Shown here: positions 37,119 through 39,959 of the stretch, piece by piece
Position numbering within the stretch: position 1 is the stretch's first letter
Layout: each line of letters opens with the position of its first letter
Assembly (NCBI GenBank): GCA_035533595.1
Contig: DATLTN010000031.1
Coordinates: 14,363-78,362 of the forward strand
Reading direction: 5' to 3'
From: Acidimicrobiales bacterium
Lineage (GTDB): Bacteria; Actinomycetota; Acidimicrobiia; Acidimicrobiales; Bog-793
DNA length: 64,000 bases
Translations under genes and position numbers: made by a program
The notes under the pieces: generated by a model
Seen by the model: the letters and a program-made list of their open reading frames with translations, nothing else
What the model was told of the DNA's origin: nothing
Databases searched by the model: none

Positions 37119-37124
37119 CAAAGC

Positions 37125-37148
37125 GCACACGTTCGGGCCAACGTGTGC
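37125..37148. repeat. 9-6-9 perfect palindrome GCACACGTT-cgggcc-AACGTGTGC, 6 nt inside one end of the recombinase element (candidate recombinase core site; could also act as terminator)
   Basis: Read directly. It lies 17 nt downstream of the stop (37166) of the last gene. Confidence 0.6.
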
Positions 37149-37165
37149 ACAACGCTTCCGAAAGC

Positions 37166-38452
37166 TCACAGGTTGGCGAGCTCCGCAAGGCGCGCCGAGT
37201 CGACACCGTCGGCGAGGTAGTGCAGTGGTGCGCGGTAGGTGAAGCCGAAGCTCGACGCGACGAGGCGCGGGTCGGTGCTGCGCGTGAGCGCGGCGAGGCG
37301 GGTCGAGCGGAGCACCCGGAGCGAGACTCCGGCCGGCCTGAGGACGCTGCGGAGGTAGGTCGCTGAGACGGGGATGGCGTTCGTCGTCGTGAGCCGGGTG
37401 ACGATGACGTGGTGGTTCTCGGTGCACAACGTCTCGTGGTGCGCGAGGCAGGCGGCGAGCGCAGCCGTGGTGCGCGGATCGAGCGGCACCGGGCGCGGGC
37501 GGCGTCCGAGACGCAATGTGGATCTGGCGAGATCGCAGTCCTCGAGGACGAGGTTGCAAAGCTCGGCCGAGGAACAGCCGTGCAGCAGCCCGGCGAGGCC
37601 GACGAAGGACTCGTAGGGGTGGACGTCGGCGCTGCCGGTCCAGCGCTCGTAGAGGGCGCGCTGGCGCTCGAGGGGAAGGAGCTCGCTCGCCACGCCGCTT
37701 TGGCCTTTCGGTCCCTCGAGGCGCGCCGTCGGGTCGACGAGCACGAGCCGTTCGGCTCGGGCGAAGGAGAAGAAGCGATGGAGATGCGTGAGGTAGCGGC
37801 GGGAGACCGCCGGTGAGAAGGCGACGAGGAAGGCCTCGACGTCTCCTTCGGCGACGACTTCGAAGCCACAGCTGTCCCCAGTTCGCCTGGCGATCGCGAT
37901 CGCCAGACCCACGATCGCATCGAGGCGCTCCTCGGTGAGGTGGTGACGAGGGACGGTCGCCTTGAGGCGCTCGGCGCGCTTGCGGGCAATGAGCTCGGCT
38001 TCGACGAAGCGCTCGACGGCTGGGAGGAAGCCCGCCGGCGTCGCCACGAGTCGTCGCCTTCGCCGGAGCTCGGCTCGACGATCGCCTTCGTCCTCGACAT
38101 CGATCGGTGCGGGCCCGACCGTGGAGAAGAAGTCGCCGAGGCTGCGAGCGAGCGTCCCGCCGCGAGCCGTCGGTGACCGAGAAGCTCGAAGCAGCGATGC
38201 GGGATCGTTGCCCTCGCTTTCGAGCAGTCGGCCGAGGTCAGCGACGAGCCGAGTCGCACGCGAGACAGAGAAGCGCTCGGTCACGTAGGCGACGTAGGCG
38301 TCGAGGAACCCGGGGGGATCGACGAGGCGTCGGTGGAGGCCCTCGGCGCAAACGAAAGGGCGGTCGGGCTGGCGGCGCAAACACCGCGCGCACAACCCGT
38401 GTCCGGCGTGGGGCCTGAGCTCGCCGCACGACGAACAGGAGATGATCCTCAC
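37166..38452 (-). CDS. Zinc-ribbon protein with C-terminal tyrosine-recombinase-like domain that appears catalytically degenerate
   Basis: Frame of ORF 37166..38752, from GTG 38452 (GTGA overlap with the HTH stop). N-terminus VRIISCSSCGELRPHAGHGLCARCL (CxxC...CxxC). C-terminus ...GLLHGCSSAELCNLVLEDCDL...LRLGRRPRPVPL...LRVLRSTRLAAL...YRAPLHYL is alignable by eye to the recombinase boxes, but lacks Arg-I and the His residues. Confidence 0.6.
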   Translation of the reverse strand: MRIISCSSCGELRPHAGHGLCARCLRRQPDRPFVCAEGLHRRLVDPPGFLDAYVAYVTERFSVSRATRLVADLGRLLESEGNDPASLLRASRSPTARGGTLARSLGDFFSTVGPAPIDVEDEGDRRAELRRRRRLVATPAGFLPAVERFVEAELIARKRAERLKATVPRHHLTEERLDAIVGLAIAIARRTGDSCGFEVVAEGDVEAFLVAFSPAVSRRYLTHLHRFFSFARAERLVLVDPTARLEGPKGQSGVASELLPLERQRALYERWTGSADVHPYESFVGLAGLLHGCSSAELCNLVLEDCDLARSTLRLGRRPRPVPLDPRTTAALAACLAHHETLCTENHHVIVTRLTTTNAIPVSATYLRSVLRPAGVSLRVLRSTRLAALTRSTDPRLVASSFGFTYRAPLHYLADGVDSARLAELANL

Positions 38453-38763
38453 GCCGGCGGCAGCGAGCGCCCACGCCGGGCGATCGGCGTGGGAGTCGAC
38501 GACGCCTTCGAGCGGTTTTCTGTCGCTCGCGAGACCGGCGTCGTGTCGATCTCGATCAGGTCGTTCGGTGAGCACTCGAGCGCGGTGCAGAGCGCGGCGA
38601 GCGTGGTGAGCTTCACCTGCGAGGGCGTCTTCGAGAACAGCGCCGAGACCGACGCCGAGGAGAGACGGAGCCCCGCACGCTCGGCGAGGAGGCGCTGGAG
38701 CGCGACACCGGTCCAGACCTCGCGTTGCGCGGCGGCCATCCGGAGTCGCCACCTAGCCTCCAT
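38449..38763 (-). CDS. Small XRE-type helix-turn-helix protein
   Basis: WTGVALQRLLAERAGLRLSSASVSALFSKTPSQVKLTTLAALCTALECSPNDLIEID. ATG 38763 overlaps the recombinase stop by 11 nt (alternative ATG at 38739). Confidence 0.7.
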   Translation of the reverse strand: MEARWRLRMAAAQREVWTGVALQRLLAERAGLRLSSASVSALFSKTPSQVKLTTLAALCTALECSPNDLIEIDTTPVSRATENRSKASSTPTPIARRGRSLPPA

Positions 38764-39817
38764 CGCCCTCCCCCTCGAGCTCGCTCATCGTCGCCGACAT
38801 CGCTCGCCGATAGGCATCCTCGATGAAGGTTGCCGAGGGCGAGACGTACTTCATGGTGGTCCCGATCTGCCAGTGGCCAAGAAGCTGCTGAATGGCGACG
38901 AGATCGACGCCGCGCTCGTAGTTGTGGGTCGCGCACGCCCGCCGCAGCGAGTGCGGGGTGAAGCGCTCCTCGGGCGGCCCGCCCTCGATCGCCAAGAGCG
39001 AGGCGAGGCGGTTGCGGATCGTGCCCCGGCTGATCGGCCCGCCCCCTTCGTCGCAAAAGAGCGCTGTCCCGTCGCGAAAGCGCGGGCGAACGTCGGCCAA
39101 GTACCACGTCATCACGAGGTCGAGGTGGTCGAGCATCGGCACGAAACGCGGCCGCGGACCGGATCCCCGCGCACCTTTGCCGTTGCGGACGTGGAGCTTG
39201 CCGAACGGCCCTCGCTCGAAGTGGACATCGGAGTGCATCAGGCTCGCGGTCTCCTCGGCACGGAGCCCCGCGTGGTAGATGGTGCGATAGAGGGCGTAGT
39301 CCCGGCCGGCGACGGCGTACTTGCGCACCGAGCCGACCCGCTCACGAAGGAAGGTGAAGAAGCGTTCGAGGCGATCCACGTCGGGCGGGACGAGCGCGCC
39401 TGGTGAGAGGTCTGTCGTGTGCGCCGCGGAGTTGAACCGGTCGATCGGGTCGAGGACCGGAGCGGCCCCGAAGAGTGCCTCGATCTCGGTCGCCTTGCGG
39501 AGGAGGAGGAACTCGTGGAAGCCCTTGAAGGCCTGGACGTAGCCGCGGCGCGTCGACGGCGCCATGCCGAGCCCGGCGAGCCCGCCGACCACCCGGTCGA
39601 CATCGTCCCGCGTGACCTCCCAGGCCGGTCGGCCGCATGCGGAGAGGAAGCGACGCAGCACGCCGCTCGTGTTCGTGATCGAGTCCTTGCTGAACGAGCG
39701 CGCCACCCAGGTGGCGACGTAGGCGTCGAGACAGCTCGCCTGGTACTCGAAGGGATCGATCGCACTGTCAGCTCGTGCTGCTGATCCCTCGATGACCCGA
39801 AGACGGGCTTGACTCAC
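38753..39817 (-). CDS. Tyrosine site-specific recombinase (phage-integrase family), apparently intact
   Basis: Inside ORF 38753..39847. GTG 39817 is preceded by GGAGG. Catalytic set visible: YHAGLRAEE (Arg-I), HVRNGKG (Lys), HSLRRACATH (His-x-x-Arg), LLGHW, TTMKYV (Tyr). Confidence 0.85.
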   Translation of the reverse strand: MSQARLRVIEGSAARADSAIDPFEYQASCLDAYVATWVARSFSKDSITNTSGVLRRFLSACGRPAWEVTRDDVDRVVGGLAGLGMAPSTRRGYVQAFKGFHEFLLLRKATEIEALFGAAPVLDPIDRFNSAAHTTDLSPGALVPPDVDRLERFFTFLRERVGSVRKYAVAGRDYALYRTIYHAGLRAEETASLMHSDVHFERGPFGKLHVRNGKGARGSGPRPRFVPMLDHLDLVMTWYLADVRPRFRDGTALFCDEGGGPISRGTIRNRLASLLAIEGGPPEERFTPHSLRRACATHNYERGVDLVAIQQLLGHWQIGTTMKYVSPSATFIEDAYRRAMSATMSELEGEGDGG

Positions 39818-39887
39818 TGCACACCTCCACAGCGCCGCGAATTTCACGGCCGCGAGGCAGTTTCTCAGGTATCGCCTCGAAGATCGC

Positions 39888-39901
39888 GGATCTCCAGATC
39901 C
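39888..39901. promoter_or_regulatory. Inverted repeat GGATCT-cc-AGATCC upstream of the recombinase gene (possible operator for the element's HTH protein)
   Basis: Read directly, about 70 nt upstream of the GTG at 39817. Confidence 0.2.
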
Positions 39902-39940
39902 ACTGATTTGTCCTGCAAGCAGCAGCTATTCGCGCTCAGG

Positions 39941-39949
39941 AACCTGTGC
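39941..39949. repeat. Half-site AACCTGTGC near the other end of the recombinase element; 8/9 identical to the AACGTGTGC arm of the 37125-37148 palindrome, same orientation
   Basis: Read directly, 10 nt inside the inferred boundary at 39959. Confidence 0.45.
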
Positions 39950-39959
39950 CAAAACCGGA

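Follow-up and report, generated by a model that had tools for sequence, protein, structure and literature searches.

The closest described relatives of the element analysed here are the Tsy transposons (Faure et al. 2023, Mol Cell, PMC10293859), which lack inverted repeats and encode the tyrosine recombinase YRec, a helix-turn-helix (HTH) protein of small size and a TnsF-like protein, joined at times by a GIY-YIG nuclease. In the TnsF-like protein, zinc fingers at the N-terminus precede tandem core-binding domains and a catalytic domain. ZooTsy, the Tsy element of Zoogloea sp. LCSB751, forms a YRec-dependent circular intermediate, needs all three proteins and both catalytic tyrosines, and inserts at a conserved 10-bp stretch that codes for the Walker B motif, a conserved ATPase motif, of comM (PMC10293859). 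In the text of that paper comM is the sole target named and IstB is mentioned once, in a different context; beyond the paper, we found no description of insertion sequence (IS) genes as targets of such elements in the open-access and bioRxiv literature, and one later paper mentioning TnsF concerns Acinetobacter. Here we report on a 2841-bp insert in a 64,000-nucleotide stretch of contig DATLTN010000031.1 from an Acidimicrobiales bacterium (the whole stretch is called the window hereafter). The insert interrupts the transposase gene of an ISAzo13 element, and we regard it, with a probability of about 0.8, as an autonomous Tsy-type transposon: an actinobacterial form of Tsy, cargo-free in the window copy and altered in the active site of its TnsF-like protein, that homes into the genes of other insertion sequences.

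The limits of the insert were read directly from the minus strand of the window, where ...GTCGACAC is followed by ATCCGGTTTTGG... at one junction and ...GTGTGCGCTTT by GAAGAAGAAGGAG at the other. The ISAzo13 reading frame runs to ...CCGGTGATCAGCGTCGACAC, breaks into ATCCGGTTTTGGCACAGGTTCC... and, after ...AACGTGTGCGCTTT, continues with GAAGAAGAAGGAGCTGATCGG, the transposase being split between VISVDT and KKKE. When metagenome contigs were scanned for the intact junction, 120 ISAzo13 loci were fetched; over 1009 bp the closest of them (L183; loci under comparison are cited by such numbers) has 89.5% identity and runs from GTCGACAC into GAAGAAGAAGG without a break. Because this empty site is unbroken, the insert can be set at exactly 2841 bp, from 37120 to 39960, and no target base was duplicated or lost. 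The two transposase halves abut at positions 175/176 of the NCBIfam model and 96/97 of the Pfam model, with no gap across the junction. An initial annotation of this DNA had noticed that the ISAzo13 peptide is split by 2841 bp, which the junctions and L183 bear out; its length was right and its placement, at 37119-39959, was off by one base. It also stated that the insert has no cargo and no DDE or serine enzyme and that a target duplication could not be seen, and the Pfam and NCBIfam scans of the insert, which returned neither such an enzyme nor cargo, agree with this together with the empty site.

Three overlapping minus-strand genes, all intact, occupy the insert (Table 1), the YRec and HTH genes overlapping by 11 nt and the HTH gene and that of a 428-aa protein through GTGA. 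Their coupling had been recognised from the start, but they do not fill the insert completely, as had been thought: 113-143 non-coding bases at its 5' end and 46 at its 3' end hold the conserved end sequences. In an alignment with archaeal XerA (4a8e), YRec has the full R-K-H-R-H-Y set, with the catalytic residues R196, H299, R302, H325 and Y334 in place. An exact-protein look-up of the window HTH protein returned solely the same locus in metagenomes. All three genes are intact in four copies of the element that have diverged to 78-86% nucleotide identity, and the ratios of nonsynonymous to synonymous substitution (dN/dS) across these copies, 0.14-0.21 for YRec, 0.12-0.22 for the HTH protein and 0.23-0.31 for the TnsF-like protein, show that all three are under purifying selection. 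These results support the early view of a discrete, cargo-free mobile element of IS size that has no enzymes but those of the tyrosine-recombinase type: an active recombinase and, besides a small HTH protein, a second protein with the recombinase fold.

Table 1. Positions of the element, its genes and ends, and the flanking parts of the interrupted transposase gene in the window
Feature	Positions	Strand	Basis and remarks
Whole element, Tsy-type tyrosine-recombinase transposon (candidate), 2841 bp	37120..39960	minus	Junction reads, empty site L183, same ends in L006, L009 and L012
Left end (end 1), non-coding	39848..39960	minus	Starts ATCCGG; 9-mer GCACAGGTT at 39941-39949, then conserved blocks
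YRec tyrosine recombinase, 364 aa from GTG (alternative start 39817 gives 354 aa)	38753..39847	minus	Pfam PF00589 Phage_integrase, E 8e-22
HTH protein, 104 aa, Cro/C1 type	38449..38763	minus	Pfam HTH_26, E 1e-9
TnsF-like protein, 428 aa	37166..38452	minus	Zinc ribbon, AlphaFold model, Foldseek, match to a listed TnsF homolog
Right end (end 2)	37120..37174	minus	14-mer AACCTGTGAGCTTT (37161-37174), dyad (37125-37148), terminal GCTTT (37120-37124)
ISAzo13 transposase, 5' part, upstream target flank	39961..40517	minus	NCBIfam transpos_ISAzo13, E 7e-55, model positions 2-175
ISAzo13 transposase, middle part, downstream target flank	36702..37119	minus	NCBIfam transpos_ISAzo13, E 5e-67, model positions 176-308

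The 428-aa protein gave nothing above threshold with Pfam and NCBIfam, only weak Xer matches. Its N-terminus is a CxxC...CxxC zinc ribbon, followed by a helical core-binding region and a recombinase catalytic fold. It was modelled with AlphaFold from an alignment of 38 relatives (predicted local distance difference test score, pLDDT, 86.8), and the best Foldseek matches of the model were XerA, Tn1549 Int, lambda Int, XerH and the integron integrase, which identifies it as a recombinase-fold protein. A tandem core-binding arrangement is plausible, judging from the modelled helices. At the active-site positions S294 stands at Arg-I and R379 and F404 at the two His, with R382 and Y412 kept, and the family alignment gives the same picture: R382 is invariant, Y412 nearly invariant, Ser takes the place of Arg-I, and other residues stand at both His positions. 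The description of this protein as degenerate is uncertain: it fits the replaced first Arg and two His, but not the invariant second Arg and the nearly invariant Tyr, and in ZooTsy the Tyr of TnsF is needed for transposition.

The assignment to Tsy comes from gene order, domain architecture and sequence, which displace the Tn554-like logic first proposed for the element. Window YRec is 63% identical to the protein named yrec of tnsf69node in Data S1 of Faure et al. (E 6e-159), the HTH protein 61% identical to its hth (E 5e-43), and the 428-aa protein 43% identical over 235 aa to the TnsF homolog RGP48684.1 of the same data set (E 3e-43); by these matches, close relatives of all three proteins are already in the supplementary TnsF table of that paper. 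Direct comparison with ZooTsy gave 35% identity over 66 aa (pairwise E 6e-9) between its HTH protein, translated from the published helper plasmid, and that of the window, with a shared N-terminal WRLR..MA motif, and 31% identity over 64 aa (E 2e-4) between the YRec N-termini. The window element and Tsy share the gene order YRec-HTH-TnsF-like, a TnsF-like protein with N-terminal zinc fingers, putative core-binding region, recombinase catalytic domain and conserved Tyr, the absence of inverted repeats, a long end upstream of YRec with a short one downstream, and insertion at a stretch of a conserved gene that codes for an invariant catalytic motif. The target differs: ISAzo13 in the window and istB in most relatives, both genes of transposable elements, whereas ZooTsy targets the Walker B region of comM, and comM targeting is a property of the characterised Tsy members rather than of the machinery. 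The window element also differs in having no GIY-YIG nuclease and nothing beyond the three genes, in the missing first catalytic Arg and two His of its TnsF-like protein, in end sequences unrelated to those of ZooTsy, in the Actinomycetota hosts of its family and in the antisense orientation of the istB-targeting relatives to their target gene.

The two ends of the element are asymmetric, the left one comprising about 113 conserved non-coding bases and the right one about 55, and no terminal inverted repeats were found in it. The family consensus of the left end is A(T/A)C(T/C)GG..(C/T)T(G/C)GCACANGTTC; in the clade of the window it is ATCCGGTTTTGGCACAGGTTCC and then about 100 bases in conserved blocks, the ends being exactly common to the copies of the clade. 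The right end carries the dyad GCACACGTT-GGCCCG-AACGTGTGC with its 6-bp spacer (37125-37148), and dyad and GCTTT are kept downstream of the third gene across the whole family. Because the two central positions of the dyad arms change with no matching change in the opposite arm (for instance GCACGGGTT / AACATGTGC), we regard the dyad as a putative protein-binding site and not as a hairpin. Its reading as a terminator or DNA hairpin was ruled out by these uncompensated changes, by its being followed by only three T and by a blank terminator scan. A regular spacing of GCACNNGTT half-sites that might define the crossover was also looked for, and nothing convincing appeared. In one relative (L043, 1978-2098) the left end of the element is tandemly duplicated by 100 bp.

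Relatives of the third protein are numerous: 81 were found by a word-indexed search, 265 clusters at E<=1e-30 by a full hidden Markov model (HMM) search of 1.84 billion representatives, and 165 were confirmed in a scan of one genome per species. Among the 80 matches listed of these 165, almost all are labelled Actinomycetota, and the listed hosts include Streptomyces, Kitasatospora, Mycobacterium, Mycolicibacterium, Kribbella, Pseudonocardia, Nonomuraea and Acidimicrobiales. A relative, annotated only as integrase, is present in 48 plasmid records, and strains with several copies include Streptomyces lancefieldiae DSM 40712 and Mycolicibacterium chlorophenolicum DSM 43826. The trio of YRec, HTH and third gene is retained amid unrelated neighbourhoods, and one and the same 3250-bp element (100% identity) recurs in two Mycolicibacterium species, one Williamsia metagenome-assembled genome (MAG) and one Nocardioides MAG. 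Nine short assembly contigs, one of them at coverage 470, end exactly at GCTTT and several also begin exactly at the left end, and contig L004 ends exactly at window base 37120; since contigs start and stop exactly at its ends, the element behaves as a multi-copy repeat. Further copies, exact ends and empty sites, which the initial annotation had proposed to look for, are thus all at hand in the relatives, the conserved ends and L183. Most Streptomyces loci have a fourth open reading frame (ORF) of about 149 aa, rich in Cys, between the TnsF-like gene and the right end (L020, 5230-5679), with nothing in Pfam or NCBIfam; the window element lacks it.

The same survey bears on the suggestion that the insert is what is left of a larger integrative element, such as a prophage, an integrative and conjugative element (ICE) or an actinomycete ICE (AICE), or else a native part of ISAzo13. 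Something of the former kind might be seen in a relative (L105) that has a TnsF-like gene without YRec and HTH genes beside a DUF2637 gene of conjugative-element type. Both ends were nevertheless located in about 60 loci, with the same genes between them and lengths of 2.84-4.3 kb (one of 5.5 kb), and uninterrupted ISAzo13 copies are abundant, the 120 fetched among them, with ISAzo13 models aligning free of gaps across the junction. Empty site and conserved ends together refute both forms of the suggestion at the window locus, including the native origin that the initial annotation had named as a way to be wrong, and we give it hardly any weight. The relative just mentioned (L105, 5001-6650; also L106) encodes a 549-aa TnsF-like homolog with four zinc ribbons, and a dyad like that of the right end lies 3.5 kb downstream of the gene (about 10134-10161), past TetR and ABC-transporter genes; it may be a cargo-carrying or decayed relative.

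The targets of the family are what sets it apart from the described Tsy members. Most insertions lie in istB, the helper gene of IS21 (PF01695, E 1e-46 to 1e-77 with the flanks rejoined), between the codons for ...(T/A/S)SNxx(F/P)(G/S) and (G/E/D/R)(W/F)..., with the element antisense to istB, and at least five very different IstB lineages are hit at this one codon boundary. The window element and its closest relatives (L006, L009, L010 and L012) are in ISAzo13 between VD(T/A) and KKK, in sense orientation. Three other loci (L082, L084 and L087) target an unannotated 530-aa protein directly after ...ET(V/T)IN(D/K)xx, with D following the junction in both of these elements whose left end could be identified. 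This target protein has no match in Pfam or NCBIfam; it occurs in several copies on plasmids of Rhodococcus, Mycobacterium and Burkholderia and is therefore probably an undescribed transposase. One TnpB gene and one DUF2637 gene are targets at single loci. Both annotated targets, istB and ISAzo13, are entered in DNA coding for an invariant motif of catalytic type.

The bases to either side of every junction belong to the target gene's own codons and the ends are invariant, with no target duplication at the family junctions and no convincing core shared between joined ends and target. IstB and non-IstB sites agree solely at the target positions A(-4), C(-1), G(+4)RR and G(+13)NT(+15). Four pairs of elements that are 92-96% identical (L036/L054, L015/L017, L028/L038 and L026/L029) are in istB genes without detectable nucleotide similarity to one another, and a tree built from the third protein groups the ISAzo13-targeting copies in one clade and the 530-aa-targeting copies in another, the istB-targeting copies making up the remainder. 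Insertion is thus strongly site-specific, with target choice a property of the element, and the class of target follows the clade of the TnsF-like protein; the family has entered unrelated istB lineages independently and has spread recently. The low-specificity integration first suggested by an insertion in a transposase gene does not agree with a family that hits one istB codon boundary or one ISAzo13 position. In L024, L065, L078 and L081 a single element has one IstB lineage on its left and another on its right, which indicates recombination between element copies in different IS21 elements.

For the clade of the window a passenger history has to be weighed, in which the element entered an ancestral ISAzo13 a single time and was then copied with the IS, mobilised in trans by intact ISAzo13, or inherited vertically; if this were true, the shared ISAzo13 site would say nothing about specificity. 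All four or five diverged copies of the clade are indeed at the identical ISAzo13 position, and their flanks are 70-78% identical, comparable to the elements at about 80%. Against such a history, sister groups have near-identical elements in unrelated istB genes at the same codon boundary, and contig breaks fall exactly at the element end in L004 and within some 30 bp of either end in L009, which points to alternative contexts in the same samples. A dead passenger would need no purifying selection on its genes, and the host ISAzo13 in the window is further broken by an IS110-family element and hence immobile itself. We consider this history unlikely.

We also compared the insert with other elements that move by tyrosine recombinases. 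Tn554, SE and GInt elements (PMC10214605) likewise carry recombinases of this class only, have no inverted repeats or target duplications and are site-selective, and several of them need a recombinase-fold protein without catalytic residues (Tfp in SE, GinC in GInt). They differ in having two active recombinases, one of them large, together with TnpC, Srap or GinD, usually with cargo, in a 6-bp footprint carried between sites and in hosts among the Firmicutes or Gammaproteobacteria, and no sequence match of the window proteins to Tn554, SE or GInt was found. In the Tn554 family the order is tnpA-tnpB-tnpC (TnpA of about 360 aa, TnpB of about 630 aa), whereas the window element encodes a single canonical recombinase, the HTH protein and the 428-aa protein, which lacks Arg-I, and has no TnpC-like gene. 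The footprint of 6-7 bp carried by Tn554 and SE is absent, the bases flanking the junctions being native target codons. Recombinase-in-trio (RIT) elements have three consecutive tyrosine-recombinase genes and long inverted repeats; here the middle gene encodes the 104-aa HTH protein and there are no inverted repeats. A multi-recombinase element of Tn554, SE, GInt or RIT type would account for the recombinase-only gene set, the missing repeats and duplication, the site preference and a partner with an altered active site, as in Tfp and GinC. It is a very unlikely reading all the same, given the lack of a large second active recombinase of TnpB or IntB type, of TnpC, Srap or GinD and of a recombinase trio, the lack of a 6-bp footprint between sites, and HMM scans and direct matches that led to weak Xer-type hits and to Tsy loci, respectively. 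Integrative mobile elements exploiting Xer (IMEX) use host XerCD at dif and have no recombinase of their own, whereas the window element encodes its own recombinases and the targets of its family are IS genes; its only dif-like feature is the right-end dyad with a 6-bp spacer.

Two further comparisons concern the choice of target. The TnsF of Tn7-like elements of Tn6022 type, also a zinc-finger and recombinase-fold protein, picks a site in a conserved AAA+ ATPase gene and is therefore a precedent for the recombinase fold as target selector. Movement of Tn6022 relies on TnsABC and TniQ, and the catalytic chamber is gone from its TnsF, while the window element has no Tn7 genes and its protein keeps the Tyr. 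Hunters of mobile DNA include the res hunters Tn5053/Tn402 and elements of the IS110/IS1111 type that sit in repeats, all with DDE or DEDD enzymes; landing in the sequences of other mobile elements is common to them and to the present family, and enzymes and targets differ. We know of no hunter that uses a pair of tyrosine recombinases aimed at DNA coding for a transposase motif.

By analogy with ZooTsy, the Tsy-type transposon would move as follows. YRec would join both ends into a circle with the expected junction of ...GTGTGCGCTTT with ATCCGGTTTTGG..., or, in the family form, of ...GTGCGCTTT with A(T/A)C(T/C)GG... The TnsF-like protein would use its zinc ribbon and core-binding domains to bind the target, which is DNA that codes for an invariant protein motif (in ISAzo13, VISVDT before and KKK after the insertion point; in most relatives, the IstB stretch (T/S)SN..F(G/S) before and (G/E)W after it). 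The circle would then enter the target at one phosphodiester position. The HTH protein would be an obligatory accessory and may bind the right-end dyad GCACNNGTT-N6-AACNNGTGC. We infer that sites inside other insertion sequences would provide many harmless, conserved and mobile landing sites.

Several observations weigh against this interpretation. The first catalytic Arg and two His are missing from the TnsF-like protein, and ZooTsy needs TnsF catalysis, so the chemistry may differ. A pattern scan of metagenome contigs for the joined ends of a circle or tandem gave 0 matches, a weak negative that is uninformative for rare molecules, and there is no second copy of the element within the window. 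The copies of the window clade are all at the same ISAzo13 site, and for this clade alone one old insertion carried by ISAzo13 is possible. Homology to the TnsF of ZooTsy is probable on the basis of the paper's own list together with the HTH and YRec fragments. Finally, no core shared by joined ends and target was found, which bears on the mechanism of strand exchange; insertion at a single phosphodiester without such a core might hint at one-strand exchange resolved by replication. Exchange of one strand completed by replication, carried out by a heteromer of the canonical and non-canonical recombinases, is a possibility here.

The surroundings of the element in the window form a nest of insertion sequences. 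The ISAzo13 copy is interrupted a second time by the IS110-family element (35266-36633, minus; NCBIfam transpos_IS110, E 1e-76), beyond which a 3' remnant of ISAzo13 lies at about 34921-35202, and metagenome contigs L001 and L002 carry the identical nesting of an IS110-family element within ISAzo13. Chromosomal genes adjoin the nest at 40559-42558 on the minus strand, where ORFs resembling isochorismate synthase and a UbiE/MenG-type methyltransferase were recognised from their translations by eye; G+C is about 80% in these genes and about 69% in the element. Scanning the window for Rfam families and tRNA genes gave 0 matches.

Tsy has so far been known from one reconstituted element that targets comM. 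The present analysis indicates that its three-protein machinery exists as a bare, IS-sized transposon across Streptomyces, Mycobacterium, Rhodococcus and genera related to them, with clinical mycobacterial plasmids among its carriers, and that the presumed selector protein is retargetable to different conserved coding motifs. We lean slightly towards a broader reading, in which a large actinobacterial branch of Tsy would be a parasite of other transposable elements, with a selector apparently retargeted at least three times (to istB, ISAzo13 and the 530-aa protein), insertions that would disable the host IS while riding it and its plasmids, and an exchange of one strand hinted at. The natural series of selector-target pairs formed by these three targets can be used to learn how a recombinase-fold protein reads DNA, a matter that bears on programmable insertion tools, and the conserved ends permit automatic annotation of such elements. 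For the genomes concerned, transposons that home into transposons inactivate them and shuffle them through recombination between copies.

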